A stretch of 39,698 bases of DNA from a virus. Of the stretch, positions 13,038 through 39,334 are shown one piece after another. The stretch is taken from the IMG/VR virus record IMGVR_UViG_3300021057_000023, positions 1 to 39,698 of that record. The stretch is one strand, 5' to 3'. The stretch's first letter is position 1. Every line of letters starts with the position of its first letter. The position numbers were made by a program, and so were the translations under genes. The notes beneath the pieces are model-generated. The model ran no database searches. It was not told the DNA's origin and saw only the letters and a program-made list of their open reading frames with translations.

Positions 13038-13188
13038 GTCTACCCAGCGCCATAGACTAACGGTGCTTAAAATCCTGGGACCGAGAGGTCGTGCAGGTTC
13101 AAATCCTGCCGCGGGCACGCCACCTTACGGAGTTTTCCACCTGTGGACACACAGACTGAAAAGTCTACCGCCCATAGACTTTCTATGG
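13038..13188. promoter_or_regulatory. GTCTA-N-TAGAC palindromes flanking the tRNA fragment (candidate integrase/excisionase binding sites)
   Basis: GTCTAcccagcgccaTAGAC at 13038..13057, GTCTAccgcccaTAGAC at 13163..13179, and CCATAGActtTCTATGG at 13172..13188. Confidence 0.35.
13066..13117 (+). other. attP core candidate: 3' portion of a tRNA-Leu(TAA)-like gene (anticodon loop to discriminator)
   Basis: The elements are cttaaaa (anticodon-loop-like), a long variable-arm stem gacc-gaga-ggtc, a T arm gcagg-ttcaaat-cctgc and an acceptor 3' strand cgcgggc plus a. No complementary 5' acceptor strand or D arm lies upstream. The fragment sits 180 nt upstream of the integrase. Confidence 0.55.
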
Positions 13189-14396: not shown

Positions 14397-14827
14397 ATGC
14401 TCAAGAAAGAAACAGCGAAGGTGCAGCGATCGCGAAGGGCAGGAAAACGGGCGGCAGGGACTTCGCCAAGGGCCAGTCGGGAAATCCGGCCGGCAGAGCG
14501 CCCATCCCGCCGGACCTGAAGGCGGTCAAGGCCCTCTCGGCCGACACCTTCAAGCGGCTCGCCACGGTCTACCTCGAGATGCCTTTCCCCGAGGTCGAGG
14601 CCACGGCCGAGGGCAACGGGCCGGCTCTGAACAAGCTGGTGGCGTCGATCATCGTCCAGGCCACCAAGTACGGGGACCACTCGCGGATGAACGCGCTCCT
14701 GGACCGGATCGTGGGCAAGGCGACGGACAAACTTGAGCTGACGCTGCCCGAGCCCTTCATCGTGCGGCGGCTGACGGGTGAGGAGGTCGTCATGGGAGCT
14801 AAGAAGCCCGACGAGGAGGCCTCGTGA
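14397..14827 (+). CDS. terS: Terminase small subunit-like protein (DUF5681-type GQSGNPxGR motif), apparently needing a -1 frame change
   Basis: FAKGQSGNPAGR is encoded at about 14462..14497 in the frame of ORF 14579..14827. That frame has no ATG, GTG or TTG upstream of 14579. ATG 14397 (MLKKETAKVQRSRRAGK) lies in the +1-offset frame. An ATG-only call would be 14579..14827. Confidence 0.55.
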
Positions 14828-15911: not shown

Positions 15912-17234
15912 ATGCCTGAATGGCGCCCCCACAGCCCAAAGCAGGAGCGCGCGGTCTTCACCGACCGGCGGATCACGCTGCTCGCCACCGGTATCCAGTT
16001 CGGGAAAACCGCTGCCGGCGCCGTGCGGATGAAGATGGCCCTCCATACGCACACCGACCCGTCGGACGCCTTTCTCATCGTGGCGCCGACCTACAAAGTG
16101 ATGCAGCAGTCCACGCTCCCGGCGTTCCTGAACGTCATGCGAGGCTATGGGGAGTACTCGAAGGCCGACGCGGTCTTTGAGACCTCGTGGGGCACCAAGG
16201 TCTACTGCCGCACGACCTCCGACCCGGACGCCATCGTTGGCATTACGAACATTCGCGCCGTCTGGGCCGACGAGGCCGGGCTCATGAGCTTGTATGCGTG
16301 GGAGAACCTTCAGGCCAGAGCCGCCTTCAAAGAGGCGCCCATCGTCCTCACGACGAGTCCGTACACGCTGAACTGGGTCTTCTCGGAGATCATCCGCCCC
16401 CGGCAGAAGGACCCCGCAGCGCGCCCCGACGTCGAGCTGGTGCAGGCCCGCTCGGACGAAAATCCGTACTTCCCCAAAGAGGAGTACGAGCGCCGCAAGG
16501 CAACCATGGACCCCCGGCGCTTCCGGATGGTCTTCGGCGGCCAGTGGGAGAAGATGGAAGGCCTCGTCTACGACTGCTTCGACGACGACGAGAACGTCGT
16601 GGACCCCTTCCCGCTGCCCGCCGGCACCCGCTTCTACGGCGGGATCGACTGGGGCTATAACCCGGACCCCTTCGTCCTCCTGATCCGGGCTGTGACGCCT
16701 GACGGCAAGCACTTCGAGGTCTCCGAGCACTATCAGACGGGGCTCACGCCCTCGCAGATGGTCTCGCTGGTGCAGCAAAAGCGCCAGGTCTGGGGCGTGA
16801 GGCAGTTCTTCTGCGACCCGAGCCAGCCAGGCCTCATCGCCGAGCTCAATCGCCACGGGTGCGTCGCCACCGGGGCCGACAACGACATCCTGGTGGGCAT
16901 CGGCCGGCACTATGAGCTCGTGAAGACCCGCCGCTACCGGGTCTTCAGAGGGGCGTGCCCGCACCTACTCGACGAGCTGTCGATGTATCATTACCCTGAG
17001 CCCCAAGATCTAAAGCCCGACCAGAATCCCAAAGAGCCAAAGCCCGTGGACCAGCACAATCACGCGGCCGACGCCATGCGCTACGTGACCATGGGGACCT
17101 GGAACCTAGCCGGCGAGCGGCGGCCCATCGTGCCGAGCGGCGAGGGCGGCCGGCCCAAGCCCGAAGAAGACCAGTTCAAGCGCATCGAGAGACTAAAGCG
17201 CCGCTCGGCTCGGGGCGGTTTGGAGGAGTGGTGA
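15912..17234 (+). CDS. terL: Terminase large subunit
   Basis: Walker A-like ATGIQFGKT, Walker B VWADEAG and nuclease-domain motifs GIDWGY and HAADAMRY. Confidence 0.9.
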   Translation: MPEWRPHSPKQERAVFTDRRITLLATGIQFGKTAAGAVRMKMALHTHTDPSDAFLIVAPTYKVMQQSTLPAFLNVMRGYGEYSKADAVFETSWGTKVYCRTTSDPDAIVGITNIRAVWADEAGLMSLYAWENLQARAAFKEAPIVLTTSPYTLNWVFSEIIRPRQKDPAARPDVELVQARSDENPYFPKEEYERRKATMDPRRFRMVFGGQWEKMEGLVYDCFDDDENVVDPFPLPAGTRFYGGIDWGYNPDPFVLLIRAVTPDGKHFEVSEHYQTGLTPSQMVSLVQQKRQVWGVRQFFCDPSQPGLIAELNRHGCVATGADNDILVGIGRHYELVKTRRYRVFRGACPHLLDELSMYHYPEPQDLKPDQNPKEPKPVDQHNHAADAMRYVTMGTWNLAGERRPIVPSGEGGRPKPEEDQFKRIERLKRRSARGGLEEW

Positions 17235-17913: not shown

Positions 17914-19839
17914 ATGGACATGGGGCCGCGTGGCCCTCGAGATGGAGCCCGCCAGATGCTAGACGAGCACGCCCCCAGGACCGGCCCCGAGGACGAGAAA
18001 AAGCCCGCCCAAGAGGCCTGGGAGGGGACGCCGGCCGAGCGAAAGCTGGTCAAGCGGCTCAAGAAGAAGTTCGAGGAGGCCAAGAAGCACAAGAGCCTCT
18101 TCGACGCCAATTGGCTCACCTACTACAAGATGTACCGCGGCCGGCAGTGGGAGACGATGCGCCCCTCCTACCGCCACGGCGAGGTCGTAAACTTCATCTT
18201 TCAGAACGCCCAGAGCATGGTGCCGATCATGCTCGACACGAGGCCCAAGTTCGAGTTCATGGCGACCGAGCCGACCGACCGCGAGTTTGCCGAGATCATG
18301 AACGACCTGGCGGCCTCGGACTGGGAGAAAAAGGGCTGGATGGGCGTTCTGACGGAAGTGGCGTTCGACGGCTGGCAGTACGGCTCTGGCCTCTCTCGCA
18401 TGAAGTACGACCCCGAGGCCGGCCAGGGCTTAGGCGAGATCGACTACCGCTCGGCCGACCCGTTCTACTGCTTTCCCGACCCGGATAGCTCCAAGGTGAA
18501 CGACGAGGACCCCTTCGTCGGCTCCGACTACTTCTGCTACGCGCAGCCGGTCTCCCTTCGGAAGCTGAAAAAGGCCTTCCCGAAGTACGCCAAGTACATG
18601 AAGGCCGACCTGGTCGATCTCACGAGCGACACCAAGCACGACGTGACGCCGCTTCGGATTCGCTCGCCGATCGACAACCGCTCGGTGGTCGAGACGACGG
18701 CCGAGACGGAGTTTCAGCTCCGCGACAAGGCGCTCATGATCGAGATGGTCTGGCGCTGCGACGAGATCGAAGAGATCGAGGTCCCAGGCGGTGTGGACGC
18801 CAACGGCGCGCCCGTGCCGCCGGTCTATGAGCAGCGGCTTAAGTACCCCAACGGCCGCTACACGGTGATCGTCAACGACATCCCCGTCTTTGACGGCCCA
18901 GCGCCCTTGGAGGACGGGACCTTCCCGTGGCAGAAGTTCGACAACTACGTGCTCCAGCGCGAATTCTGGGGCGTGTCGGAGGTCGAGAACCTCAAGAGCC
19001 CGCAGCAGGTCTTCAACAAGCTCGTCTCCTTCTCGCTCGACGTCCTGGCGCTGATGGGCAACCCCATTTGGCTGAACCCCTTTGACTCAGGCGTCGAGGA
19101 CGACCAGCTTGAGAACCGCACGGGCCTCGTCATCCCGCACAACCGCGAGGCGCCGCCGCAGCGGATCGAGGGGGTAAACCTCCAGCCGTGGGTGAGCCAG
19201 TTCATCGACAAGTTCGCCGACTGGTTCAACCAGGTGGGCGGCAGCCAGGACATCACGAGAGGCGTGAACCCCACGGGCGTCACCGCCGCGTCGGCCATCT
19301 CGAGCCTCCAGGACGCCGCGCAGACGAGAGTCCGCCAGAAGTCGCGGAATCTGGACCTCTACCTCCAGCAAGTCGGCCAGTGCTACGCCCAGCTCGTGAT
19401 GCAGCATTACTCGGCGCCCCGGGTTTTCCGGCTCACCGGCAAAGACGGCGCGCAGACCTACTTCAAAGCGCACATCTCCAAGGCCCAGGACGGGACGACC
19501 ATGCTCGTGAGAGAGACCTTCTCGCCCGAAGGCCTCTCGACCGGCATCCAGGAGTACGCGCTCAGAGGGAAGCTCGACGTTCGCGTCTCCACGGGCTCCT
19601 CGCTGCCGTTCAACAAGGCCGAAAAGCGCTCCCAGACGTTGGAGCTGTTCGACCGCGGCCTCATCGACCAGGAGGAGGCCTTGAAGCACGTCGACTGGCC
19701 GAATTACGAGGCCGTCCTGCAACGCATGCAGGCCGCCGCCGCTCAAGCCCAGGCCGCCGAGGCCGAAGCGGCGGCTATGAAAGCCGGCGGCAGCGGCGCA
19801 GCACCCGCTCCCTCAGCGCCGCCGCCACCGGCTGCCTAA
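17914..19839 (+). CDS. Portal protein
   Basis: 641 aa and just downstream of terL. N-terminal WLTYYKMYRGRQW motif, with an Ala-rich C-terminal tail. The start may instead be 17956. Confidence 0.75.
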   Translation: MDMGPRGPRDGARQMLDEHAPRTGPEDEKKPAQEAWEGTPAERKLVKRLKKKFEEAKKHKSLFDANWLTYYKMYRGRQWETMRPSYRHGEVVNFIFQNAQSMVPIMLDTRPKFEFMATEPTDREFAEIMNDLAASDWEKKGWMGVLTEVAFDGWQYGSGLSRMKYDPEAGQGLGEIDYRSADPFYCFPDPDSSKVNDEDPFVGSDYFCYAQPVSLRKLKKAFPKYAKYMKADLVDLTSDTKHDVTPLRIRSPIDNRSVVETTAETEFQLRDKALMIEMVWRCDEIEEIEVPGGVDANGAPVPPVYEQRLKYPNGRYTVIVNDIPVFDGPAPLEDGTFPWQKFDNYVLQREFWGVSEVENLKSPQQVFNKLVSFSLDVLALMGNPIWLNPFDSGVEDDQLENRTGLVIPHNREAPPQRIEGVNLQPWVSQFIDKFADWFNQVGGSQDITRGVNPTGVTAASAISSLQDAAQTRVRQKSRNLDLYLQQVGQCYAQLVMQHYSAPRVFRLTGKDGAQTYFKAHISKAQDGTTMLVRETFSPEGLSTGIQEYALRGKLDVRVSTGSSLPFNKAEKRSQTLELFDRGLIDQEEALKHVDWPNYEAVLQRMQAAAAQAQAAEAEAAAMKAGGSGAAPAPSAPPPPAA

Positions 19840-21227: not shown

Positions 21228-22160
21228 ATGGGCGCCATGGCGCTTACCTGGAACCAAGTCAATGCGCTGACCGAGAAGAAGTGGCTTCCGAAACTGGTCG
21301 ACAACATCTTCGACTCCGACCCGCTTCTGGCGCGCTCGAAGTCGGAGGGCTGGTACACGAAGGAGGACGGCGGCACCTCCATCATGCAGCCGCTCCTCTA
21401 CGCCTCGCTCACCGCCGCCGGCTGGTATCAGGGGGCCGACACCCTGTCCACCGCCGACAATGAGACCTTCACGGCGGCCGAGTTCGCCTGGAAGCAGCTC
21501 TACGTCAACGTCACGATCTCGCGCCGTGACGAGCTGATCAACTCGGGCGACGCCGCCAAGATCAAGCTGGTGGAGAGCAAGCTTCAGGTCGCCGAGAAGA
21601 CCATGAAGGACTACCTGGGCGACGGCCTCTACAACGCCGGCACCGACTCCAAGGCGATCGGCGGCCTGCGCCACATCGTCTCGACGTCGAACACGGTGGG
21701 CGGCATCGCCCAGGGGACCTATTCGTGGTGGCAGGCCGAGGTCGATTCGTCGACCACGACGCTCACCCTCTCGGCCCTTCAGACCATGGACTCCAACCTC
21801 ACCATCGACGGCGAGGGGCCGACGGTCTGGATCGCGACCCGGGCCAACTACAACCGGCTCTACGCGCTCCTGCAGCCGCAGCAGCGGTTCGTGGACCAGA
21901 AGACGGCCAAGGCCGGCTTCACGAGCCTGATGTTCAACGGCAAGCCGTACATCGTCGGCTCCAAGGTCCCGGCCAACTACATCTTCGCGCTCAACGAGAA
22001 GTACCTGAAGCTGGTCGCCCACAAAGACGAGGACATGCGTATGAGCAAGTTCCTCGACTTCACCAACCAGAACGCCCGGACGGCCAAGCTTTACTGGATG
22101 GGTAACCTCACCAGCTCCAACAACCGCATGCACGGCGTCTTCAGCGCCGTCGCCGCCTAA
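21228..22160 (+). CDS. Major capsid protein
   Basis: 310 aa, follows the scaffold gene and precedes the decoration gene. The sequence looks typical of HK97-fold capsid proteins (..FNGKPYIVGSKVPANYIFALNEKYLKL..). Confidence 0.75.
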   Translation: MGAMALTWNQVNALTEKKWLPKLVDNIFDSDPLLARSKSEGWYTKEDGGTSIMQPLLYASLTAAGWYQGADTLSTADNETFTAAEFAWKQLYVNVTISRRDELINSGDAAKIKLVESKLQVAEKTMKDYLGDGLYNAGTDSKAIGGLRHIVSTSNTVGGIAQGTYSWWQAEVDSSTTTLTLSALQTMDSNLTIDGEGPTVWIATRANYNRLYALLQPQQRFVDQKTAKAGFTSLMFNGKPYIVGSKVPANYIFALNEKYLKLVAHKDEDMRMSKFLDFTNQNARTAKLYWMGNLTSSNNRMHGVFSAVAA

Positions 22161-22172: not shown

Positions 22173-22655
22173 ATGACCGTCTACGCGCAAAACGCGGGCG
22201 CTTGGTTCGACTCGGTCTCGATGGTGACGGCGACGCTGGGCACCAATGACCCGGAAGTTGGCACGGTGCGCCGCGAAGGGGACGAGGAGTACCTCTTCGT
22301 CTACAACACCGGCTCCAACGCCCAGATCAGCCCCGGCTACGTGGCCACGGTCTCGGCCGTCACCGGTTACTCGGTCACCGTCTCGACGACGACGATGATC
22401 GACCACCCGGTGGGCGTCTGTAAGCACGCCACGATCACGACGGGCGCCTACGGCTGGCTCCTCCGCTACGGCTTCGGCACGGCGAAGATGCCCGCCAACT
22501 CCGGCTGTGCGGCGGGTCAACTGCTCACGGTGGGCGCCGACGGCGTCTCGGCCGTGAAGTCGATCTCCACCGACGCGCCGGGGATCGTCTACGGCAAGGT
22601 TATGGAAGCGACCGGCTCGGCCGGCGTCGCCACGGCCTTCTTCAAGTTCTTCTGA
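22173..22655 (+). CDS. Head decoration protein (DUF2190-like, putative)
   Basis: It follows the capsid gene. PVGVCKHATITTGAYGWLLRYG....AAGQLLTVGADG fits the decoration/cement protein pattern. Confidence 0.45.
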   Translation: MTVYAQNAGAWFDSVSMVTATLGTNDPEVGTVRREGDEEYLFVYNTGSNAQISPGYVATVSAVTGYSVTVSTTTMIDHPVGVCKHATITTGAYGWLLRYGFGTAKMPANSGCAAGQLLTVGADGVSAVKSISTDAPGIVYGKVMEATGSAGVATAFFKFF

Positions 22656-22672: not shown

Positions 22673-23689
22673 GTGGTCAAAAAGGCCGAGGTCTACCTTA
22701 GCTACCAGGGGCTCATCTCAGAGCCCCCGGTGGCCCGCAGCGCCCTCTACAGCCAGGCGTGCTCCAACGACGGCGTCACGATCTCCTCGTGGCGGCCGAC
22801 TTGGATCAAGCACGCCAAGGCCAACAAGAAGCGTTTCGGGTCGTTTAAGGACCACTCGCTAGGCCAGCTTTGGGGGAAGGGACTTTACCGCCCGGCGATC
22901 ATCGCCGGCGCGGGACCTTCCCTCAAAGGCAACGCGCATCTGCTGAAAGACCGAGGCGAGGGCATCCCGCTCGTCTCGTGTCTGCACAACTTCCACTACC
23001 TCGAGGACTTGGGCTGCCCGGCGGACTACTACGTCTCGCTGGACGCCGGCGAGGTCGTGGTCGAGGAGGTTTCCGAAGGCGGGCAGCGCTCGGCCGACGA
23101 GTATTGGGCGCTGACGAAGGATCGGACGCTGATCTGCTACATCGGGACTCACCCCGAGCTCCTCGAGAAGTGGCAGGGCCGGATCCTGTTCTTCAACTGC
23201 CCCGTGCCGGACGACGAGCTGAAGAAGGCCCTCTCGGAGATCGAGACCTTCGGCTGCCACGTCTCCAACGGCGGCAACGTGCTCGGGGCCTGCCTCTACA
23301 TCGCCAAGGGGTATCTCGGGGCCTCTGACATCGTCTTCGTGGGGGCGGACTTCTGCTTCTCCTACGATCACAAGTTCCACGCCTGGGACTCCAAGTACGA
23401 CAAGCACCTTGGCCACTGCGTGAGCCTCACCGACGTCTACGGCGTGCGGCGGCTCACCTGGCAGTCCTATGCCAACTTCAAGGCGTGGTTCGACCACATC
23501 GCTTTGACGGTCCCCGGGACCTGGGTGAACGCCACCGAGGGCGGCTGCCTTGGGTCCTACCCGACCGGGAACCTTGCGGCCTTCAAGTACATGGACCTAG
23601 CCGACGTCTTCAAGACCTGGCGCATGCTGGAACATACGCGCAAGCAGGCCTTCGAGCCCGAGGCCGACGACAAAACCATCCTCTTCTAA
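22673..23689 (+). CDS. maf: Maf-like DUF115 (MAF_flag10) protein: putative nonulosonic-acid glycosyltransferase
   Basis: PAIIAGAGPSLKGNAHLLKD...PLVSC...GCPADYYVSLD and GGNVLGACLYIAKGYLGASDIVFVGADFCFS match the two conserved DUF115 blocks of motility-accessory-factor proteins. Confidence 0.65.
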   Translation: MVKKAEVYLSYQGLISEPPVARSALYSQACSNDGVTISSWRPTWIKHAKANKKRFGSFKDHSLGQLWGKGLYRPAIIAGAGPSLKGNAHLLKDRGEGIPLVSCLHNFHYLEDLGCPADYYVSLDAGEVVVEEVSEGGQRSADEYWALTKDRTLICYIGTHPELLEKWQGRILFFNCPVPDDELKKALSEIETFGCHVSNGGNVLGACLYIAKGYLGASDIVFVGADFCFSYDHKFHAWDSKYDKHLGHCVSLTDVYGVRRLTWQSYANFKAWFDHIALTVPGTWVNATEGGCLGSYPTGNLAAFKYMDLADVFKTWRMLEHTRKQAFEPEADDKTILF

Positions 23690-25229: not shown

Positions 25230-25625
25230 ATGGCGGATTTCAGCGTCACGATCAACAACTCCATCAATTCGTGGGGGCCCGCCCCCTCGAACAAGTGGGG
25301 CGCGTGGAACTGGAACGCCTTCAAGTGGGGCGAGGGGACGCACGACCTCACGACCGAAACGGTCAAGGTCTCATCTGAGACCCTCTCGCTGAGCCAGTCC
25401 CTCTCGCTCGCCGCCGACTTCGTCATCTCGCTCGCGAACTCCGTCGCCTCCGCCGAGGACCTGGGCTCCGAGGTCCTCCGCTCCGGCTCCTACTCCTACG
25501 TCTTCCCCTCGAACGTGACCGACGGCGAGAGCCGGTCGTTTGCCACCTGGACCTCGGGCTCCGTGGCGTCGGTCACCTGGACCTCGGGCACGGCCACCTC
25601 AACCTCGTGGAGTAGCGCCGCATGA
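25230..25625 (+). CDS. Ser/Thr/Trp-rich virion-module protein (131 aa)
   Basis: The C-terminus contains repeated TWTSG motifs: FATWTSGSVASVTWTSGTATSTSWSSAA. Confidence 0.6.
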   Translation: MADFSVTINNSINSWGPAPSNKWGAWNWNAFKWGEGTHDLTTETVKVSSETLSLSQSLSLAADFVISLANSVASAEDLGSEVLRSGSYSYVFPSNVTDGESRSFATWTSGSVASVTWTSGTATSTSWSSAA

Positions 25626-26251
25626 CGCCGCTCGAGATCGAGACCATGGCGCGCCAGCGCTACAACGCCGTCGGCGACAGCTTTTGGGCGTCGACCGAGA
25701 TGATGGGCCTCATCTGGCAGGCCTGCCAGGAGCTGGCCAGAGAGGCGAAGTGCATCCGGCGCGTCTTCACGACGACGACTGTGGCAGGCACCCGCGAGTA
25801 CGCCTTCCCGACCAACGTCACCGCCATCAAGCGGATCATCTACAACGGGATTCGCTTGGACGAGGTGCAGTTCACGGTCGATGACGACCTCACGAGCTTC
25901 TACGAGACGACGACGAACCAGGGCCCGCCGGAGACCTTCGTCCAGTGGAACGAGACGCTCTATCTCAGGCCCATCCCCGACGGCGCCTACACGCTGAAAA
26001 TCTATGGGTACTGCGAGCCGCAGGAGGTCACCTCGACTTCGACGCTCGAGGTTCCGACTGAGTACCATCAAGGCCTCTGCGACTACCTCAATATGATGAT
26101 GGCGGCCAAGGATAAGAACCTCCAGGCCGCCCAGTGGTTCGAGAAGCGCTGGGACCTCACCAAGGCCAAGGCCGTCCGCCAGGAGCGGGCGAAATACCGG
26201 GGCGGAAACCTCATCTCGGTCTATGACGCCGAAGGCTGGCTGTCGCGGTGA
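25622..26251 (+). CDS. Head-tail adaptor / tail tubular protein A-like (putative)
   Basis: 209 aa, directly upstream of a large beta-rich tail protein. Position and size match T7 gp11-type adaptors. Confidence 0.4.
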   Translation: MTPLEIETMARQRYNAVGDSFWASTEMMGLIWQACQELAREAKCIRRVFTTTTVAGTREYAFPTNVTAIKRIIYNGIRLDEVQFTVDDDLTSFYETTTNQGPPETFVQWNETLYLRPIPDGAYTLKIYGYCEPQEVTSTSTLEVPTEYHQGLCDYLNMMMAAKDKNLQAAQWFEKRWDLTKAKAVRQERAKYRGGNLISVYDAEGWLSR

Positions 26252-32359: not shown

Positions 32360-32830
32360 ATGGGCAAGGGCTGGAAATCGACCGATACGATCGAGCAACG
32401 GTTCTACAAGTTCGTCGAGAAGACGGACGCCTGTTGGCTTTGGCGCGGCACCCTCGCGAACGTCGGCTACGGCTTTATGACCTTCCAGGGCAAGCGCCTG
32501 CAGACCCACCGCACGTCCTACGAGATGCACAAGGGACCGATCCCGGAGGGCATGTTCGTCTGCCATAAGTGCGACGTGCGGGCGTGCGTGAATCCAGACC
32601 ATCTCTTTCTCGGAACGATCCAGGACAACCGCGCCGACTGCGTTCAGAAGCGCCGCCATGGGCACGGCGACACGCACGGCAATGCCAAGCTGTCCGCGAA
32701 TGACGTCATCACGATGCGGCGCCTGTTCGCTTCAGGGAAGTATACGAAAGCCGCTCTGGCTAGGCGCTTTGGCGTGACTCCACCGACGGCGCAAAAGGTC
32801 ATCGACAGAAAAAACTGGACACATCTCTAG
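32360..32830 (+). CDS. HNH homing endonuclease
   Basis: CWLWRG....GYGF......HRTSYEMHKGPIPEGMFVCHKCDVRACVNPDHLFLGTIQDNRADC is an HNH_3-type pattern, followed by a C-terminal HTH-like tail. AAGGAG lies upstream. Confidence 0.8.
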   Translation: MGKGWKSTDTIEQRFYKFVEKTDACWLWRGTLANVGYGFMTFQGKRLQTHRTSYEMHKGPIPEGMFVCHKCDVRACVNPDHLFLGTIQDNRADCVQKRRHGHGDTHGNAKLSANDVITMRRLFASGKYTKAALARRFGVTPPTAQKVIDRKNWTHL

Positions 32831-32845: not shown

Positions 32846-33751
32846 ATGCCGGCGCCATCGCTGACGTACACGCTCACTAACGGCTCGACCGCGGACGCGA
32901 GTCAGGTCATGCAGGACCTGAACGATCTGCTCAACGGCATCACCGACGGCACGAAAGACCTCTCCATCTCGGCGCTCACCGTCGCCGGCACGCTGACTGC
33001 CAACGGCAACGTCAACCTGGGCAACGCCTCGGGCGACGACCTGACGATCACGGCGTCGCTGGCGTCGACAATCCCCATCAAGACGACGGCGAGCTATGAC
33101 ATCGGCTCGTCGACACTTGGCCTCCGGGCGATCTACTTCGGCCGCAACGGCCAGACGGTGAACGTCGTCGGCTCGTCGTCCATGTCGGCGACGTGGACCT
33201 TGACGCTCCCGGTGTCGGCGGGGACGGCGAACTACCTGCTCACCACCAACGGCTCGGGCGTGACGTCGTGGACGGCCATCTCGGACTCGAACTTTCTCGC
33301 GACCTCGTCGGCCGGTGGCACCGTCTCCTATTACGCCGACAACGGCACGTTCACGCCGACGCTCAAGGGCTCTACGGCAGATCCGACGAGTATCAGCTAC
33401 ACGGCGCAGCACGGCTTCTACGTGCGTATCGGCAAGCTAGTCGTCATGTGGGGCCGCCTCGGCTGGGACGCGGCCACGGGCGGGACAGGGACGCTTCGCG
33501 TCGGCGCCATCCCGTTTGCGGCGACCGGGACCTCGAACTACCGTGCCCAGATTTTCCTCGCGACCTCGAACATCGCGCAGTCGGGGATCACGAGCGACGG
33601 CTGGTTCACTGGCGAGATCGAGGCGAGCCAGCAGTTCATAAACGTCAACCACTCCTACGAGGGCTCCGGCCAGGCGTCAACCTCGGTCGGCGACAACAAC
33701 GGCGCCGTGGCGCGCACGATCTTCTTCTCCGGCTGCTACCTCGTCGCCTGA
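32846..33751 (+). CDS. Tail fibre / receptor-binding protein
   Basis: N-terminus TNGSTADASQVMQDLNDLLNGI is a typical tail-fibre N-terminal motif. The body is S/T/G-rich and beta-like, and the gene is the last structural gene. Confidence 0.65.
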   Translation: MPAPSLTYTLTNGSTADASQVMQDLNDLLNGITDGTKDLSISALTVAGTLTANGNVNLGNASGDDLTITASLASTIPIKTTASYDIGSSTLGLRAIYFGRNGQTVNVVGSSSMSATWTLTLPVSAGTANYLLTTNGSGVTSWTAISDSNFLATSSAGGTVSYYADNGTFTPTLKGSTADPTSISYTAQHGFYVRIGKLVVMWGRLGWDAATGGTGTLRVGAIPFAATGTSNYRAQIFLATSNIAQSGITSDGWFTGEIEASQQFINVNHSYEGSGQASTSVGDNNGAVARTIFFSGCYLVA

Positions 33752-33756: not shown

Positions 33757-33773
33757 GCCTCGGACCCCGAGGC
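33757..33773 (+). terminator. Hairpin after the tail fibre gene
   Basis: GCCTCGG-acc-CCGAGGC. No clear T tract follows. Confidence 0.3.
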
Positions 33774-33786
33774 CTGCTACCCTGCC

Positions 33787-33805
33787 CGATAAATCAGATT
33801 TATCG
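33787..33805. promoter_or_regulatory. Perfect 19-bp palindrome upstream of the sugar cassette
   Basis: CGATAAATC-A-GATTTATCG in a locally AT-rich segment. GATTT recurs twice more before the ATG at 33823. Confidence 0.4.
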
Positions 33806-33822
33806 CCGTCGGATTTCTATTG

Positions 33823-34101
33823 ATGGATTTAATCACCTGGGCTCTCGCCCTCGGCCTATTAACCGTCGTGCAGGCCGCAGGGTTCATGGCCTGGCGTCTC
33901 CGAAGGGAGCGCCAGGCCTATAGCGCAGCGCTCGCCGCCCATGAAAAGCGCGCCGCCGAGCAGCTAGCCGCAGCCGAGAAGGCGCCGGCACCGACCCATG
34001 ACGCCAAGCGCGTCTTGGCCGCCCTGGCGTCCTCGTCGGCCATCGTCCGCATCGACGTCCTCGATCCGGGGGACTTCTTCATCCGCTCACCACGGGGGTA
34101 G
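33823..34101 (+). CDS. Membrane-anchored hypothetical protein (92 aa)
   Basis: N-terminal hydrophobic stretch LITWALALGLLTVVQAAGFMAW. It is the first gene of the cassette. Confidence 0.55.
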   Translation: MDLITWALALGLLTVVQAAGFMAWRLRRERQAYSAALAAHEKRAAEQLAAAEKAPAPTHDAKRVLAALASSSAIVRIDVLDPGDFFIRSPRG

Positions 34102-34103
34102 CG

Positions 34104-34997
34104 ATGCGCTACGTCATCGTCGGCGGCACGGGGACCATGGGCCGGGCGCTCACCAAGGCGCTCTTGGCCAGGAAAGACACCGAGCGCGTCCTCATCGTCT
34201 CGCGCGGGGAGCTAAAGCAAAAGGAGCTTAGGGACGCCAACCCCGGCGAGTACGCGCGTGGGCGCCTGCGCTTTGTGATCGGCGACGTGCGCGACAAAGA
34301 CGCGATGTACGAGGCGATCGACCCGGGCGTCTCGGCCGTCTTTCTCTGCGCGGCTTTGAAGCACGTCGACGTCGCCGAGGACAACCCGCTAGAGGCCCTG
34401 AAAACCAACGCTCTCGGCGTCGCCAACGTCGCCGAGGCGGCGATGACGGCCGACGTCCCGCACGTCGTCTTCAGCTCGACCGACAAGGCCTGTCTGCCGG
34501 TGAACGCCTACGGCATGAGCAAGGCCTGGGCCGAGCGGTATCTGTGGGCCATGAACCGCCGGCAGGTGGGCACCCGCTTTGCCGTCTACCGCTGGGGGAA
34601 CGTCCTGGGCTCGCGCGGCTCGGTGATCCACGACTTCATCCGAACGCTTGAAACCTCGCGCTCGGTCTCGGTCACCGACCCTCGGATGACGCGCTTTTGG
34701 CTCAAGATCGAGGAGGCCGTCGCCTTCATGCTCTCGACCTACCGCGACGCCGCCCCTGATCGGCCGATGATTCCCAAGATGCGGGCCTCGAGCGTCATGG
34801 AGCTGGCCGAGGCGACCGCCCGGCTCATGAAGATGACCGACTTCGAGGTCAAGGTGGTCGGCATCCGCAACGGCGAGAAGCTTCACGAGACCATCGAATC
34901 GACGCACGAGAAGTGCCTCAGGTCCGACACGGCCGAACGCTTCTCGAAAGAGGACCTTGAGGCCCTCATTGCTCCGCTCATCGAGGGCTGCGCGTGA
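34104..34997 (+). CDS. pseB: PseB/FlaA1/CapD-type UDP-GlcNAc 4,6-dehydratase (short-chain dehydrogenase fold)
   Basis: VGGTGTMG, GDVRDKD, AALKHVDVAEDNPLEALKTN, STDKACLPVNAYGMSKAWAE, RWGNVLGSRGSVIHDF, TDPRMTRFW and GIRNGEKLHE follow the Polysacc_synt_2 pattern. Confidence 0.8.
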   Translation: MRYVIVGGTGTMGRALTKALLARKDTERVLIVSRGELKQKELRDANPGEYARGRLRFVIGDVRDKDAMYEAIDPGVSAVFLCAALKHVDVAEDNPLEALKTNALGVANVAEAAMTADVPHVVFSSTDKACLPVNAYGMSKAWAERYLWAMNRRQVGTRFAVYRWGNVLGSRGSVIHDFIRTLETSRSVSVTDPRMTRFWLKIEEAVAFMLSTYRDAAPDRPMIPKMRASSVMELAEATARLMKMTDFEVKVVGIRNGEKLHETIESTHEKCLRSDTAERFSKEDLEALIAPLIEGCA

Positions 34998-35617
34998 GAA
35001 AGGTCTGCCTCGTCGGTCACCGCGGCGGCATGGGTCGCCGCTATCAGGCGGTCCTCAAGCACCTCGGCTACCGGGTCGTCGGCCACGACTTGGCCGACGG
35101 CTACAAGCCCCTGCGCGTCCGTATCGCCGAAGCCCAGGGATGCGACGGGGTACTCATCGCCACGCCGACCGACGCCCACATTGCGTCCATCCACGAGTAC
35201 ATGCGCGCCGGGCGCCCCATCCTCTGCGAGAAGCCCATCTCCCGCGACCCCTTTGCGCTGCGCGCGCTCTTAGACGACGTGCAGGCCCGAAAGGCGCCGC
35301 TCCAGATGGTCCGCCAGTACGAGAGGCTGGTGGAGGAGAAGGACGAGGGCCTCACCGAGTACGACTACTTTCGCTCAGGATCGGACGGCCTCCATTGGGA
35401 CTGCATCTCGATCGTGTCGCTGGCCAAGGGGACGGTCCGGCTGGCAAGCGAGAGCCCCCTGTGGAAGTGCCAGATCAACGGCCGGCGTCTGTCGCTTGCC
35501 GACATGGACCGTGCCTACGTGGAGATGGTGGACGAATGGCTGAAGGCCCCGCGCGACGACTCCGGGCGGCTCATGGAGTGGCACCTGAAGGTCGCCCAGA
35601 TGAAGGCCTCGGCGTGA
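34994..35617 (+). CDS. Gfo/Idh/MocA-family NAD(P)-dependent oxidoreductase (short form)
   Basis: KVCLVGHRGGMGRRY and LIATPTDAHIASIHEYMRAGRPILCEKPIS match the family signature. GTGA overlap. Confidence 0.65.
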   Translation: MRKVCLVGHRGGMGRRYQAVLKHLGYRVVGHDLADGYKPLRVRIAEAQGCDGVLIATPTDAHIASIHEYMRAGRPILCEKPISRDPFALRALLDDVQARKAPLQMVRQYERLVEEKDEGLTEYDYFRSGSDGLHWDCISIVSLAKGTVRLASESPLWKCQINGRRLSLADMDRAYVEMVDEWLKAPRDDSGRLMEWHLKVAQMKASA

Positions 35618-36345
35618 AGACGGTACTCATCGGCATCCAGGCCCGGTCGACCTCGACGCGGCTGCCGAGAAAGGCGTTTGCCACGATCGGCGATCGGATG
35701 CTCCTAGACCACGTCTTGAAGGCCTGTAAGGACTCGGCCTTTTACCTCAACAACGCGCGCCGCCGGACCCAACTGGCCCGCGTGGCCCTGCTCGTGCCCG
35801 AGGGCGATCCGATCGCCGCGGCCTTTCGCGACCGCTGCTACATCGTCGAAGGCCCCGAGGACGACGTCCTGACGCGCTATGCTTACGCCGCCCAGGAGTT
35901 TAGCGCCCACTACGTGGTCCGAATCACGGCCGACTGCCCCAAGATCCCGCCCTACGTGATCTCGGCCCACGTCGCTCGTGCCCTGGCACCCGGGACGCCG
36001 CTCGACTATCTGTCCAACGTCGACGAGGACGCCCGCACGTCGCCCGACGGCCACGACTGCGAGGTCATCAGCCGGCGGCTTCTGGACCACGTCCACGCCG
36101 AGGCGAAGTCGGCCTTTGACAGAGAGCACGTGACGACCTTCATCCGCCGCGGCGTGAGAGAGAGGACGCTCTCTAGGGACTTTCGCTGCAAGGTGACCGT
36201 GGGCTTTACCGACGACTCGGCCAAAAAGCTTTCCGTCGACACCGAGGACGACCTAAGGCGCGTCAGAGAGGATGACGACCGCGTCGAGGCCAAGATCCGC
36301 CGGGGCCTTGAGATCTACGGCCCCGAGGGAGTCCTGCGCCTATGA
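35614..36345 (+). CDS. pseF: SpsF/PseF-like cytidylyltransferase (CTP_transf_3 family), putative CMP-sugar synthetase
   Basis: LIGIQARSTSTRLPRKAF...DDVLTRY...VVRITADCPKIPP matches the IQAR.gStRLPgK / RiTaDcP pattern. GTGA overlap at 35614. The track's 462-aa ORF is an artefactual upstream extension. Confidence 0.7.
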   Translation: MKTVLIGIQARSTSTRLPRKAFATIGDRMLLDHVLKACKDSAFYLNNARRRTQLARVALLVPEGDPIAAAFRDRCYIVEGPEDDVLTRYAYAAQEFSAHYVVRITADCPKIPPYVISAHVARALAPGTPLDYLSNVDEDARTSPDGHDCEVISRRLLDHVHAEAKSAFDREHVTTFIRRGVRERTLSRDFRCKVTVGFTDDSAKKLSVDTEDDLRRVREDDDRVEAKIRRGLEIYGPEGVLRL

Positions 36346-37553
36346 TCGACTTCTCGGATCAGCGCCGCGCCAATCTCTCGATCGCGCAAGGGGCGCTCAC
36401 CAACTCCAAGCGCCCTGAGATCTTCGTAAAGGGCGTCTACCCCACGCACGTCATCCGCGGCCGAGGCTGCTTTCTCTGGGACACGGCTGGCCGCAAGTAC
36501 GTGGACTTTGTCTGCGGCCTGGGCTCGAACCTCCTGGGCTACGCGCACGAGACCATTACGTCGGCCGTGATCTCGCAGATGGGCGCCGGTACGACGCTCT
36601 CGCTCTCGACCGTGCTCGAGATGGAGGTGGCCGAGCGGATCAAGGGCCTCGTGCCCTTCATTGACGCCGTGAAGTTCCTAAAGACCGGCACCGAGGCCTG
36701 CATGGCGGCGATCAAGATTGCCCGGGCCAAGACAGGCAGAAGGCTAGTCTTATCAGATGGATACCATGGCTGGTCGGACCCCTTCGTCTCGCTCACGCCG
36801 CCCGCCGCCGGCGTCGTCCCCGACTCTAAGTCGCTCTGCGTGGCCAAGCTCACCGACTTCTCGCAGATCACGCCGTCGGTGGCCGCGGTCATCGTCGAGC
36901 CCGTCGTCACCGACTGGTCGGCCGAGCGCCGCCGCTATCTTGAGCAGCTGCGCGCGGCCTGCGATCGGGCCGGCGCGCTCCTCATCTACGACGAGGTCAT
37001 CACCGGCTGGCGCTGGCCGAGCTACACGGTCGCGCAGGCCTGGGGCGTGACGCCGGATCTCATCTGCCTCGGCAAGGCCATCGGCGGGGGGCTGCCGCTG
37101 TCGGTCGTCGGTGGCAAGTACGCCGTGATGAATGGCTCTGAGTACTTCGTCTCGTCCACGTTCGCCGGCGACCAGGCGGCCCTGGCGGCGGCCAACTCGG
37201 TCATGGCTCTGCTCGGGGGTCGTTACTCGCTCTCGCGCCTTTGGGAGCAGGGGGCGGCGTTTCTCGAGCGCTTCAATCGCCTCTGGCCGGACGCCGTCAA
37301 GATCGTCGGCTATCCCACCCGCGGCGCCTTCCAGGGGGACGCCGGGGTCAAGGCGCTGCTGTGGCAGGAGGCCTGCCGCGCGGGGATTCTGCTCGGGCCA
37401 TCGTGGTTCTACTGCTTCCCGCACATCGACGAGCAGGAGGCCGTCCTGGGGACCTTGGCGGACATCATGAAGCGCATCCGCGCGGGCCAGGTGGAACTGA
37501 AAGGCGAGCCGCCGCGCTCGCCGTTTGCCGCACAGGTGAGGGGGAAGGCGTGA
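36342..37553 (+). CDS. Class-III PLP-dependent aminotransferase (glutamate-1-semialdehyde aminomutase-like)
   Basis: DFVCGLGSNLLGY, DEVITGWRW and LGKAIGGGLPLSVVGGK (Schiff-base Lys context) are typical Aminotran_3 motifs. ATGA overlap. Confidence 0.75.
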   Translation: MIDFSDQRRANLSIAQGALTNSKRPEIFVKGVYPTHVIRGRGCFLWDTAGRKYVDFVCGLGSNLLGYAHETITSAVISQMGAGTTLSLSTVLEMEVAERIKGLVPFIDAVKFLKTGTEACMAAIKIARAKTGRRLVLSDGYHGWSDPFVSLTPPAAGVVPDSKSLCVAKLTDFSQITPSVAAVIVEPVVTDWSAERRRYLEQLRAACDRAGALLIYDEVITGWRWPSYTVAQAWGVTPDLICLGKAIGGGLPLSVVGGKYAVMNGSEYFVSSTFAGDQAALAAANSVMALLGGRYSLSRLWEQGAAFLERFNRLWPDAVKIVGYPTRGAFQGDAGVKALLWQEACRAGILLGPSWFYCFPHIDEQEAVLGTLADIMKRIRAGQVELKGEPPRSPFAAQVRGKA

Positions 37554-38320
37554 ACGTGACCTTGGAGCTCGGACCGCTCGAGAGCTGCCTCATCGAGACG
37601 TTTCGCCGCTGGCGTAACGATCCTCGGATCTGGCGGTGGACGAGACAGAACGACTTCATCTCGGACATCTCGCAGCGCGACTGGCTAGACCGCATGGCCA
37701 AGTGCAACCAGACGCGCATGTACCAGATCAACCTGCGGATCGACGACAGGCCCGCAGAGCCCGTTGGCGTCTGCGGCCTCACCAACATCGACTGGGGGAA
37801 CCGCCGGACCGAGCTGTCGCTCTATATCGCGCCCGAGCACCATCGCAAAGGCTTTGGCCGCAGGGCCTGCGATCTGCTCCTCATGCACGCCTTCGTGAAC
37901 CTCAACCTCAGGCTCGTCTGGGCTGAGAGCTTCGACGGGAATCCTGCGATCAAGATGTTCGAGAGCCTGGGGTTTGTTCGCGAGGGCACCCGGCGTGACT
38001 TCTACTGGAAGGACGGCAGATATTGGAACGCCCACCTTCTTTCGATCAAGGTAGACGAATGGATTACCTCGAAATCGCCCACCTCGCCATCAGCCTCGCC
38101 ATCCTCGTCCTCATCGCCATCGGCTTCCGTAGCTCCCTTGGATGCAGCCGTCAGCACGCCCCAGAAGATCGCGACCGCCATGAGGCGCCCGCGCGGCAGG
38201 CCCCGGAGGCTAGGCCAACCCCTCCCCCCGGCAGCGCCTACGCCGGCCCCCCTAGAGCCGCTAGCGGAAGCGGCAAGCGACGCCCCATCGCCATCGACGA
38301 CGCCCGGGCTTACCGGCTAG
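37550..38320 (+). CDS. pseH: GNAT-family N-acetyltransferase (PseH-like) with a 90-aa S/P-rich readthrough tail
   Basis: RRWRNDPRIWRW....ISQRDWLDRM....VGVCGLTNIDWGNRRTELSLYI..EHHRKGFGRRA......NLRLVWAESFDGNPAIKMFESLGFVREG. The domain ends near 38050 and the rest overlaps a better-coded ORF in another frame. Confidence 0.65.
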   Translation: MNVTLELGPLESCLIETFRRWRNDPRIWRWTRQNDFISDISQRDWLDRMAKCNQTRMYQINLRIDDRPAEPVGVCGLTNIDWGNRRTELSLYIAPEHHRKGFGRRACDLLLMHAFVNLNLRLVWAESFDGNPAIKMFESLGFVREGTRRDFYWKDGRYWNAHLLSIKVDEWITSKSPTSPSASPSSSSSPSASVAPLDAAVSTPQKIATAMRRPRGRPRRLGQPLPPAAPTPAPLEPLAEAASDAPSPSTTPGLTG

Positions 38321-38367
38321 AGCGGCGCCGCGAGCGTGAGGCGGCCGACGACGATGGTATAATCTAG
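38059..38367 (+). CDS. Small membrane protein (102 aa) overprinted on the 3' tail of the GNAT ORF
   Basis: MDYLEIAHLAISLAILVLIAIGF is a transmembrane-like helix. Third-position GC is clearly higher in this frame than in the GNAT frame over 38059..38320. Confidence 0.5.
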   Translation: MDYLEIAHLAISLAILVLIAIGFRSSLGCSRQHAPEDRDRHEAPARQAPEARPTPPPGSAYAGPPRAASGSGKRRPIAIDDARAYRLERRREREAADDDGII

Positions 38368-38394
38368 GGCAGACCCGTCCGATCAGGATTTCAG

Positions 38395-38428
38395 AGGCCT
38401 CCACGTCGAAAGACGTCGGGGCCTTTTT
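38395..38428 (+). terminator. Rho-independent terminator closing the sugar cassette
   Basis: AGGCCTCCACGTC-gaaa-GACGTCGGGGCCT followed by TTTTT. The 13-bp stem has one mismatch and one G-U pair, with a GNRA loop. Confidence 0.8.
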
Positions 38429-38515
38429 GGTTCCTATCGGACGGAGCTTTGCGCACTGAGCTCTCCAATACGGATGGCCCCCGGGGCGACTGCGCTTCGG
38501 GGGCCCTTTCCCCCG

Positions 38516-38782: not shown

Positions 38783-38888
38783 GTGGATCGCCGCCAATCC
38801 GGAGACCTTCGGTGCCGTGGTCGGCGTCCTGAACGTCGTCCTTAGGGCCGTGACGACCAGGGGCCTCTCGTGGTCGGTGAAGCTGTGA
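38658..38888 (+). CDS. Holin (putative, two hydrophobic segments)
   Basis: KAWQSKTVWTNIALAVAPLIPGA...FGAVVGVLNVVLRAVTT matches a common small phage holin pattern. It lies immediately upstream of the endolysin with a GTGA overlap. Confidence 0.55.
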   Translation: MTEVMRIEIPPPAPAPKKAWQSKTVWTNIALAVAPLIPGASEWIAANPETFGAVVGVLNVVLRAVTTRGLSWSVKL

Positions 38889-39334
38889 CGATCGAGGTTG
38901 ATCGCGAGCTGATCTATGACCTGGCCCTCTCACTTGTCGGCCTGCCCTACCGATACGGCGGGGCGAGCCCGATGGAGGGCCTCGACTGCTCGGGGCTTTG
39001 TGTCGAGCTCCTTCAGGCCTGGGGCCGGGTAGGTCACGGAACAGACCTCTCGGCTCAGGGCCTGCATGACCGCTTCAAGATGCTGGCCTCGACCTTGGGC
39101 GCCGGCACCAAGCCCGACTTCGGGTGGCTGGCCTTCTACGGCAAGGGGCCGGCCGTGGTGACCCACGTCGGCTTCTGCCTCTCGGGGAACTCGATCCTCG
39201 AGGCCGGCGGCGGCGACGCCCAGACGACGACCTTGGAGGCCGCGATCAAGCGCCGGGCCTTCGTCCGCGTCCGCCCGATCAAATACCGCCGCGACTTTCT
39301 CTGCTGCTATCCCACCGCGCCCGGGGCGGTATAA
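38885..39334 (+). CDS. NlpC/P60-family peptidoglycan endopeptidase (endolysin)
   Basis: GLPYRYGGASPMEGLDCSGLCVELL (catalytic Cys context) and VTHVGFCL (His). The track's alternative start is 38870. Confidence 0.75.
   Translation: MTIEVDRELIYDLALSLVGLPYRYGGASPMEGLDCSGLCVELLQAWGRVGHGTDLSAQGLHDRFKMLASTLGAGTKPDFGWLAFYGKGPAVVTHVGFCLSGNSILEAGGGDAQTTTLEAAIKRRAFVRVRPIKYRRDFLCCYPTAPGAV

Follow-up and report, generated by a model that had tools for sequence, protein, structure and literature searches.

The stretch of DNA considered here (the window) is the 39,698-nucleotide virus record IMGVR_UViG_3300021057_000023, positions 1 to 39,698, a complete temperate phage genome of ~39.7 kb and 66% GC. Between a tail-fibre-like gene and the lysis genes lies a seven-gene sugar block (33823-38367, hereafter the cassette), and two further genes elsewhere on the same strand encode a NeuB-family nonulosonate synthase and a Maf-like protein that we call mini-Maf. 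On balance, we favour the view that these genes make up a phage-owned, core and non-canonical route to a cytidine monophosphate (CMP)-linked nonulosonate, and that mini-Maf uses this sugar to O-glycosylate protein late in infection, most likely a virion protein. We are more confident of the biochemical part of this proposal, namely that the cassette and NeuB, judged by their sequences, would make a CMP-activated amino-nonulosonate that is used by mini-Maf. The relatives sampled for comparison are ~35 metagenomic phage contigs of 35-66% GC from IMG/VR, JGI, NCBI, ENA and Logan; L-numbers are labels of related or compared contigs, L001 being a relative 98% identical to the window phage.

The cassette genes, all on the plus strand, encode in order a small membrane protein (TM1), a PseB-like enzyme, a small Gfo/Idh/MocA dehydrogenase (mini-Gfo), a cytidylyltransferase, a class-III aminotransferase, a GNAT N-acetyltransferase and a second small membrane protein (TM2). 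Neighbouring genes either adjoin or share 4 nt, as would be expected of a single translationally coupled unit. Enzymes were assigned by Pfam and NCBIfam profile searches, and the five families named in a first-pass annotation of the same DNA all gave matches, each of them below its equivalog cut-off. The 297 amino acid PseB-like protein (34104-34997) is a putative UDP-N-acetylglucosamine (UDP-GlcNAc) 4,6-dehydratase/5-epimerase of the short-chain dehydrogenase/reductase type (Polysacc_synt_2, Pfam 3e-76), scoring 233.7 bits against the PseB model TIGR03589 with its cut-off of 407.75. Among solved structures its closest relative is H. pylori FlaA1/PseB (2GN4), from which it keeps both the STDK and the YGxSK motif, and it has a Tyr where FnlA and CapE have Met. 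That the first enzyme is of the PseB type points to the pseudaminic-acid side of nonulosonate biosynthesis.

Mini-Gfo (34994-35617), at 207 amino acids, matches PF01408, the N-terminal domain of its superfamily, and combines a Rossmann domain with a shortened C-terminal domain: the C-terminal Pfam domain was not detected, and full-length Gfo/Idh/MocA enzymes are ~300-350 amino acids long. It belongs to a family of ~100 homologues, nearly all of 185-245 amino acids and almost all on phage-sized contigs, beyond which the next match is a full-length inositol dehydrogenase at 38 bits. Conserved motifs, dinucleotide-binding ones included, are GxGxMGRRY, ATPTxxH, ILCEKP and DGLxWDC; ILCEKP, which contains the EKP motif of Gfo proteins, has invariant L, E and K, whilst its I, C and P reach at least 90% conservation. 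An AlphaFold2 model (predicted local distance difference test score, pLDDT, 96.8) gave WlbA/WbpB, GnnA and GenD2 as top Foldseek matches, with TM-scores of ~0.72 normalised on the query and ~0.5 on the targets. All of these dehydrogenases work in a pair with an aminotransferase, making the keto group on which that partner acts, and by its modelled fold mini-Gfo is likewise a sugar dehydrogenase of a type that supplies aminotransferases.

The cytidylyltransferase (35614-36345, its start codon adopted from the gene call in L086) is divergent. It matches CTP_transf_3 (PF02348) at 1.3e-14, gives only weak KdsB-type matches in NCBIfam with no match to the PseF equivalog at E<=1e-3, and has a single sequence relative in the PDB, 6OEW, deposited as a cytidylyltransferase; we presume from these matches that it is the CMP-nonulosonate synthetase. 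The 403 amino acid aminotransferase (36342-37553) is a class-III, HemL-like, pyridoxal phosphate (PLP)-dependent enzyme (Aminotran_3, PF00202, Pfam 2e-44) in which the PLP lysine of the GK245A motif is invariant. HemL models score it at 184-196 bits against cut-offs of 398-527 (TIGR00713, 183.9 against 527.3), and its gene neighbours are sugar genes, not haem genes. More than 100 homologues share 54-62% identity with it, many of them encoded on 35-41 kb contigs, and its PDB relatives are headed by HemL, followed by the aminoglycoside C-6' aminotransferases GenB and NeoN. The GNAT protein (37550-38320; Acetyltransf_3, 5.7e-17) has the PseH model TIGR03585 as its best NCBIfam match, at 65 bits against a cut-off of 93.1. 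Its conserved core ends at ~38182, and only residues 1-211 align with the L001 protein. The Ser/Pro-rich C-terminal tail beyond this point (38183-38320) overlaps the TM2 reading frame in another frame and is not conserved in L001, so that the true stop could lie elsewhere or the overlap with TM2 may be programmed.

This is not the textbook set of pseudaminic acid enzymes, as the first-pass annotation had recognised: the class-III aminotransferase and the Gfo/Idh/MocA protein are present, and neither PseC nor PseG is seen. A DegT/PseC match was sought without success among the sizeable open reading frames (ORFs) of the window and in the cassettes of the relatives. PHROGs holds no family for NeuB, Maf, the cytidylyltransferase or mini-Gfo.

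The NeuB-family gene (14824-15816, plus strand; Pfam NeuB and SAF domains) lies directly upstream of the gene for the large terminase, TerL (15912-17234, plus strand). The protein scores 118 bits with the PseI model and 113 with the NeuB model, the cut-offs being 340 and 400. NeuB precedes TerL in nearly all of the relatives that cover the region, is found inside the cassette in L140 and L141 and lies beside it in L131 and L170. In L119, a phage otherwise nearly identical to this one, the NeuB counterpart (10001-10972) shares only 70% identity, though identity reaches 99% for the integrase, 90% for TerL and 100% for the portal protein; the NeuB slot looks like a recombination or mosaic hot spot on these sequences.

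The strongest clue to the purpose of the sugar is mini-Maf, which lies in the structural module and was overlooked by the first-pass annotation. The gene (22673-23689, plus strand), inside the block of head genes, encodes a 338 amino acid MptE-like/DUF115 protein that matches PF01973, the Maf catalytic domain, at 5.2e-22 (78.9 bits against a cut-off of 34.6). We found 1524 homologues on phage-sized contigs; among the 120 matches listed, lengths run from 336 to 359 amino acids and are mostly 336-341. A search of PDB sequences with mini-Maf gave no match, but with an AlphaFold2 model (pLDDT 91.8) the top Foldseek match was the Maf flagellin glycosyltransferase 5MU5 (E 1e-8). The name reflects the fact that only the central catalytic domain is covered: flagellin Mafs have a three-domain architecture of ~600-650 amino acids with a flagellin-recognition domain, which mini-Maf does not share, and the window contains no flagellin gene. 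On its modelled fold, mini-Maf is presumed to be a CMP-nonulosonate:protein glycosyltransferase.

Between mini-Maf and the gene for the major capsid protein (MCP; 21228-22160, plus strand; NF033394 capsid_maj_Podo, 1e-74) lies g22173 (22173-22655, plus strand), which encodes a Ser/Thr-rich protein of 160 amino acids. The order MCP, small gene (g22173 where recognisable) and Maf is found in all 13 contigs that were identified independently through their capsid protein, and the NeuB-TerL and MCP-Maf arrangements recur in ~30 contigs identified through Maf. MCP and g22173 are therefore candidate acceptors for the sugar.

Is the cassette an insertion or part of the phage proper? The first-pass annotation had taken it for a discrete unit and, further, for a moron-type insertion; the comparisons support the former and contradict the latter. 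As to discreteness, there are gaps at both ends of this block of abutting and overlapping genes, and it changes genomic position as a whole in relatives. The usual site is after the fibre gene, but the cassette lies downstream of the endolysin in L127 and L129, between early genes and a lysin in L122 and immediately upstream of the terminase genes in L140-L142. As to insertion, every relative covering the region has the cassette, whole or reduced, with no sign of the patchy presence of a moron, and the PseB-Gfo-cytidylyltransferase-aminotransferase-GNAT order is kept in ~35 divergent contigs. Amino acid identities among relatives are 36-59% for the cassette proteins and 45-57% for the tail gene g26248, whilst composition does not deviate from the backbone either: GC is 0.61-0.67 for the cassette and 0.63-0.69 for the backbone, and third-position GC (GC3) is 0.82-0.90 and 0.79-0.94, respectively. 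Set beside the structural genes (GC3 0.87-0.94), cassette GC3 is 0.86-0.90. Universal presence, constant order, backbone-like divergence and GC3, and the ties to the core genes for NeuB and mini-Maf together argue against a moron-type insertion, and on this comparative evidence we judge the cassette to be ancestral and core to a large family of ~35-40 kb podovirus-like phages. The synteny of structural and sugar genes is constant across relatives of 35-66% GC (L003-L004, L085, L120-L143).

Some variation in gene content is seen. In L140 and L141 the order is PseB-NeuB-Gfo-cytidylyltransferase-aminotransferase-GNAT, and L140 carries in addition a formyltransferase between the aminotransferase and GNAT and an N6/N4 DNA methylase within the cassette (6267-6998, 9329-9877). 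L143 (4536-7095) retains only TM1, cytidylyltransferase, aminotransferase, GNAT and TM2, and L126 (5096-9473) lacks PseB, with a 295 amino acid ORF of no assigned family in its place. These reduced variants fit the idea, raised by the first-pass annotation, that some steps are borrowed from the host.

TM1 (33823-34101) and TM2 (38059-38367), both on the plus strand, are invariably the first and last genes of the module, and neither was described as a membrane protein by the first-pass annotation. Each is a small single-pass membrane protein. TM1 has an N-terminal transmembrane helix followed by basic residues and a conserved C-terminal motif, AxVRIExxDP..FxRSPR; the TM2 ORF opens at 38023, its likely ATG is at 38059, and the protein, which is 98% conserved in L001, ends in a conserved motif, KPxxxDDxxxW/YxxEQE. 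No convincing Pfam or PHROG family was found for either, TM1 giving just weak sub-threshold matches. In ~20 divergent contigs an equivalent of TM1 precedes the first enzyme gene, at every cassette position, and an equivalent of TM2 follows or overlaps the 3' end of the GNAT gene. From the basic residues after the helix, the conserved C-terminal domains of both proteins probably face the cytoplasm, and we guess that TM1 and TM2 might anchor the pathway at the cytoplasmic side of the membrane.

The DNA elements around the block had been read by the first-pass annotation as regulatory boundaries, and all of them are present. Upstream, directly after the tail-fibre stop (33751), is a GC-rich hairpin, GCCTCGG-ACC-CCGAGGC (33757-33773, plus strand), with a 7-bp stem, a 3-nt loop and no T-run (-15.2 kcal/mol, z -4.3); L001 has the same stem with the loop changed from ACC to GCT. 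Next comes a perfect 19-bp palindrome rich in AT, CGATAAATCaGATTTATCG (33787-33805), which lies 18 nt upstream of the TM1 ATG in a patch of 54% GC in a genome of 66%, is identical in L001 and is a candidate operator or leader structure on its sequence. Perfect 7-bp hairpins number 48 in the window against 31+-5.5 in simulations, and palindromes with 9-bp arms 2 against 2.2, the chance rate; since such elements are common or occur at the chance rate, the upstream pair is notable only for where it lies, an AT-rich patch within one of the few gaps between genes. Inverted repeats that have arms of at least 8 nt and lie within 30 nt of the TM1 start recur in only five of 21 relatives; L004, L120, L126 and L131 have them, with differing sequences, and 16 other relatives do not. 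L004 has TTGACT-17-TATAGT where the window phage has its upstream inverted repeat. Scanning for sigma-70 promoters gave no site anywhere in the window and is uninformative at this GC content.

Downstream, the element GGCCTCCACGTC-GAAA-GACGTCGGGGCC followed by TTTTT (38396-38428, plus strand) has the features of a rho-independent terminator: a GC-rich stem of 12 positions with one C-C mismatch and one G-T pair, a GAAA loop and a T5 run (-25.8 kcal/mol including flanks, z -3.9). The first-pass annotation had called it the best of the window, and it ranks first on the plus strand in a custom scan for hairpins with T-runs; a simple consensus terminator scan missed it because of the single C-C mismatch. 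The element is identical in L001 and not clearly conserved beyond near-identical genomes. A second strong GC hairpin, GGCCCCCGGGGCG..CGCTTCGGGGGCC followed by CTTTCC (38476-38508, plus strand), which the first-pass annotation did not describe, is a possible tandem terminator before the lysis genes. At -31.7 kcal/mol it is the third most stable 45-nt window of the whole sequence; the three most stable local hairpins are at 8734-8778, 7495-7539 and 38476-38508, and one of the three is a 19-bp perfect stem at the divergent early/late junction. Rfam scans of both flanks gave nothing above noise. An extended -10 promoter was considered at GGTATAAT, immediately beyond the GNAT gene, and rejected, since these letters encode the last residues of TM2 (DGII* here, EGV* in L120) and their conservation is accounted for by the protein. 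The upstream inverted repeat and the downstream terminator or terminators could plausibly act as transcription or translation punctuation around the module, and separate transcription of the cassette is possible on this sequence evidence; the tandem hairpins before the holin/endolysin genes suggest punctuation ahead of lysis genes rather than insulation of a foreign insert.

How might the pathway run? What follows on substrates, product and acceptor, like what has been said on tethering and regulation, is read from gene families, conservation, synteny and folds. The cassette and NeuB would convert UDP-GlcNAc to a CMP-activated 5,7-diamino-type (pseudaminic-acid-like) nonulosonate. The PseB-like enzyme would produce a UDP-4-keto-6-deoxy sugar, the class-III aminotransferase would aminate its keto group and GNAT would N-acetylate the new amine. 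UDP would then be removed by a host enzyme or by an unrecognised phage enzyme, NeuB would condense the sugar with phosphoenolpyruvate and the cytidylyltransferase would activate the product, leaving mini-Maf to O-glycosylate the capsid, g22173 or the tail fibre with the CMP-sugar. That N-acylation follows amination is suggested by the position of GNAT, always after the aminotransferase, and of the L140 formyltransferase between the two.

The places of the aminotransferase and mini-Gfo in such a scheme could be read in two ways. In the first, a serious possibility to which we would give somewhat less than even odds, the aminotransferase replaces PseC at C4 of the hexose and mini-Gfo performs an accessory redox step; L143, which lacks both Gfo and PseB, favours this. 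In the second, which we put forward more tentatively, mini-Gfo, the aminotransferase and GNAT add an extra acetamido group to a nucleotide-activated sugar, the host supplying PseC, PseH and PseG. This is favoured by the structural neighbours of mini-Gfo, by co-occurrence of the class-III enzyme with PseC in bacteria and by a bacterial fusion of cytidylyltransferase and aminotransferase. The fusion, a 690 amino acid CTP_transf_3 plus class-III aminotransferase protein, is encoded at 9110-11182 of L007, an alphaproteobacterial metagenome-assembled genome, in a nonulosonate cluster that also contains two NeuB genes, DegT, a PtmE-like transferase, HisH/F homologues, a formyltransferase and an aldo/keto reductase; it is a Rosetta-stone link for the pairing of the two activities. 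The same pair is found in the group I flagellin islands of Aeromonas, with the order pseB-pseC-aldo/keto reductase-pseF-class III aminotransferase-pseG-(pseH)-pseI (PMC7874193), and beside PseG, DegT and an oxidoreductase in the lipopolysaccharide (LPS) locus of non-serogroup-1 Legionella pneumophila (PMC3694923). In the literature searched we found no established role for the class-III aminotransferase of bacterial nonulosonate loci. Two other placements were rejected. If mini-Gfo and the aminotransferase acted at C3 of the hexose, as do GnnA and GnnB, they would, by our own reasoning, modify the carbon that becomes the ring-forming C6-OH of the nonulosonate; and a role in DNA glycosylation was set aside, a recent paper on glycosylated hydroxycytosine mentioning none of these enzyme types.

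A number of observations weigh against our proposal. Class-III aminotransferases are not known to us to act on NDP-4-keto-6-deoxyhexoses, and the presence of DegT/PseC beside the class-III enzyme in the L007, Aeromonas and Legionella loci argues against a simple replacement of PseC. No UDP-sugar hydrolase of the PseG/NeuC type was matched among the window ORFs scanned or in the cassette of any relative, and as this step is missing in all genomes, the pathway probably relies in part on the host or on an enzyme that escaped recognition. In L126 and L143, which are without PseB and/or mini-Gfo, the pathway is not self-contained in any case. Scores below the NCBIfam equivalog cut-offs, common to all cassette enzymes and NeuB, mean that the product may be pseudaminic acid (Pse), legionaminic acid (Leg) or another nonulosonate. 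With regard to mini-Maf, archaeal HPPK proteins (pterin kinases), together with ST8SiaIII, come next after 5MU5 among its Foldseek matches, and it spans 240 of the 632 positions of 5MU5, without the N- and C-terminal domains of the flagellin Mafs. Furthermore, MCP and g22173 are candidate acceptors by gene position only, and the integrase, together with an attP-like tRNA fragment, makes expression from a prophage possible.

This last point bears on a different purpose for the same sugar, lysogenic conversion, in which the block would be a moron expressed from the prophage that remodels the flagellin, pilin, LPS or capsule of the host and so changes phage receptors or immune recognition. The phage is indeed temperate, the flanking intergenic gaps, upstream inverted repeat and downstream terminator would suit a separately expressed unit, as would the shifting of the module between genomic slots, and prophage-encoded nonulosonate tailoring enzymes are documented, namely EpaAB in Acinetobacter (PMC12053666). 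A moron is nevertheless hard to reconcile with a cassette that all sampled relatives have, that resembles the backbone in GC3 and divergence, that follows the late structural genes in the same orientation, and whose partners lie in the head-gene block (mini-Maf) and before the terminase in nearly all relatives covering the region (NeuB), where late expression is expected; nor was a promoter detected for it, although little can be made of a scan that was empty window-wide. The location of mini-Maf between MCP/g22173 and the head-completion genes, and the orientation of all parts with the late genes, favour modification of the virion. Glycosylation of virions therefore seems to us probable and conversion of the host surface unlikely.

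The chemistry, too, can be read differently. The phage might do no more than tailor a standard Pse or Leg made by the host: its cytidylyltransferase, mini-Gfo, aminotransferase and GNAT would oxidise, transaminate and N-acetylate the CMP-sugar at C8 or C4 to give a tri-amino derivative specific to the phage, with PseB and NeuB merely boosting flux. Such tailoring would explain the absence of PseC and PseG from the phage and suits the pairing of the structural neighbours of mini-Gfo with aminotransferases, as well as the bacterial fusion and the co-occurrence of the aminotransferase with DegT/PseC in bacteria. There are also precedents for redox tailoring of CMP-nonulosonates, which count for our own proposal as well: ElaA, a Gfo/Idh/MocA enzyme, is proposed to oxidise C8 of CMP-Leg (PMC13656337), and the prophage protein EpaA, a fusion of CTP_transf_3 and an aldo/keto reductase, converts Pse to 8-epi-Pse together with EpaB (PMC12053666). 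Set against this, hosts across the range of 35-66% GC would all need PseC, PseH and PseG, L143 retains the cytidylyltransferase, aminotransferase and GNAT without mini-Gfo, and PseB, NeuB and a PseH-like GNAT exceed what tailoring needs. In addition, we know of no natural 8-amino or 4-amino nonulosonate, from a search that was not exhaustive. Tailoring alone thus strikes us as doubtful, though somewhat less so than lysogenic conversion. Much further from what the genes suggest is that no nonulosonate is made at all, the cassette producing some other nucleotide-linked amino sugar, for DNA for example, and the MptE-like protein being a kinase. All enzymes do score under their equivalog thresholds, and archaeal HPPK is the second-best fold for the MptE-like protein. 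A NeuB-family synthase, a CTP_transf_3 protein and a Maf-like fold are, however, always found together in one genome, the signature of a nonulosonate system, NeuB is embedded in the cassette of some relatives, and no DNA-modification enzymes are linked to the cassette except the methylase of one variant. We consider this explanation very improbable, and return to a phage-encoded nonulosonate pathway serving the virion as the reading that we prefer.

The remainder of the genome is that of a podovirus-like temperate phage. Early genes lie on the minus strand at the left end of the window, an ERF recombinase gene is found at 9351-10109 and an integrase gene at 13300-14385, and downstream of the latter a long plus-strand late block runs from NeuB through the structural and tail genes. 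Those on the plus strand include a P22-like portal gene (17914-19839), a SU10-type adaptor gene (25622-26251) and the tail-fibre-like gene (32846-33751) directly before the cassette; an NlpC/P60 endolysin gene (38870-39334) comes after it. MCP resembles the capsid proteins of Mx8, Mx9 and Brucella phages at only ~30% identity (tblastn). An HNH_3 homing-type endonuclease gene (32360-32830) between tail genes has a GC content of 0.60 and a GC3 of 0.80, below its neighbours, and occupies the same slot in L101 and L120 but is missing from most relatives; its deviant composition and patchy presence make a recent mobile insertion more credible for this gene than for the cassette. The sequence GCAGGTTCAAATCCTGCCGCGGGCA (13093-13125), ~175 nt upstream of the integrase gene, resembles the T-arm and 3' acceptor strand of a tRNA and is probably the attP core, which could help to identify the host; ARAGORN found no complete tRNA gene in the window.

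Searches beyond the sampled relatives gave little. Megablast of the cassette and tblastn of mini-Maf found no match among GenBank phages, and tblastn of the aminotransferase found only distant HemL/acetylornithine-type matches there (<=36% identity), many in plainly bacterial contigs, from which it follows that the GenBank phage collection searched holds no relative. A profile search of genome contigs with the aminotransferase gave matches at 27-40% identity to what are apparently ordinary hemL-type genes, with a linked cytidylyltransferase only in L007; a scan of metagenomes added further phage contigs as well as hemL-like genes of low GC, and turned up no integrated prophage. L121 (contig Ga0613798_000080, 76,537 bp) looks like two copies of a 38 kb genome joined head to tail (compare L120, 37,881 bp), which fits circularly permuted or terminally redundant genomes in this phage family. 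The spread of the family from 35 to 66% GC hints at a very broad host range for the lineage.

If our proposal is correct, a near-complete nonulosonic acid pathway and a protein transferase are core phage genes and not sporadic cargo, and virion 'sialylation' would be a widespread trait among phages, with possible effects on how they adsorb, how stable they are and whether they escape recognition by hosts or animals. In its boldest form, which we offer as speculation, a globally distributed, uncultured family of ~35-40 kb podoviruses infecting hosts of 35-66% GC sialylates its own virions. It would do so using a new biosynthetic branch, in which mini-Gfo and the class-III aminotransferase take over or extend the PseC step and perhaps yield a new amino-nonulosonate, a 338 amino acid Maf that recognises a structural protein of the phage in place of flagellin, and the TM1/TM2 tethers. 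On our proposal, mini-Maf would also show how little a member of this poorly understood glycosyltransferase family needs for catalysis, and the module, being compact and portable, would supply the enzymes to make bacterial nonulosonates and to transfer them. The pairing of cytidylyltransferase and class-III aminotransferase is common in the flagellin and LPS loci of Aeromonas and Legionella, and the small phage system is a tractable place in which to learn what the aminotransferase does. Literature searches on phage-encoded nonulosonate pathways and phage Maf proteins found no description of such a system.

Parts of it are nevertheless familiar. In common with the Aeromonas and other Maf flagellin islands, the phage encodes a PseB-like enzyme, a PseH-like GNAT, a NeuB-family synthase, a CTP_transf_3 protein and a protein of Maf fold, and as in the Aeromonas group I islands its class-III aminotransferase adjoins the cytidylyltransferase. 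Unlike these islands, the phage has no DegT/PseC, PseG or flagellin, a 207 amino acid mini-Gfo takes the place of the aldo/keto reductase, the Maf protein has 338 amino acids and no flagellin-binding domains, and the genes occupy three genome sites, with TM1 and TM2 bracketing the cassette. The encoding of mini-Gfo two genes before an aminotransferase, which is followed in turn by an N-acyltransferase, recalls WbpB/WlbA-WbpE, GnnA-GnnB and GenD2-GenS2; mini-Gfo differs from WbpB/WlbA, GnnA and GenD2 in lacking much of the C-terminal domain, and the partner aminotransferases of the latter are DegT-type, not class III.

As for the proposed purpose, the nearest parallel is in the mycobacteriophages, for which the primary work on glycosylation of the virion (capsid and tail) is reportedly that of Freeman et al. 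in 2023. Phage-encoded glycosyltransferases modifying mycobacteriophage virion proteins are also mentioned elsewhere (PMC11256854). Here, as there, a glycosyltransferase gene lies among structural genes and decoration of the virion is proposed, in our case from the genes alone; mycobacteriophages, however, use ordinary GT-family enzymes with host nucleotide sugars, and have no nonulosonate pathway or Maf-type enzyme. EpaAB of Acinetobacter baumannii and ElaABC offer the closest comparison on the side of the sugar, being phage-borne nonulosonate enzymes in which CTP_transf_3 is coupled to redox enzymes. Both, however, only epimerise a sugar made by the host (EpaA/EpaB acting on Pse5Ac7Ac, ElaABC yielding 8-epi-legionaminic acid) and include no aminotransferase, synthase, dehydratase or transferase. 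EpaAB is sporadic prophage cargo that alters the host capsule, whereas the set of genes described here is a near-complete pathway, core to its phage family.

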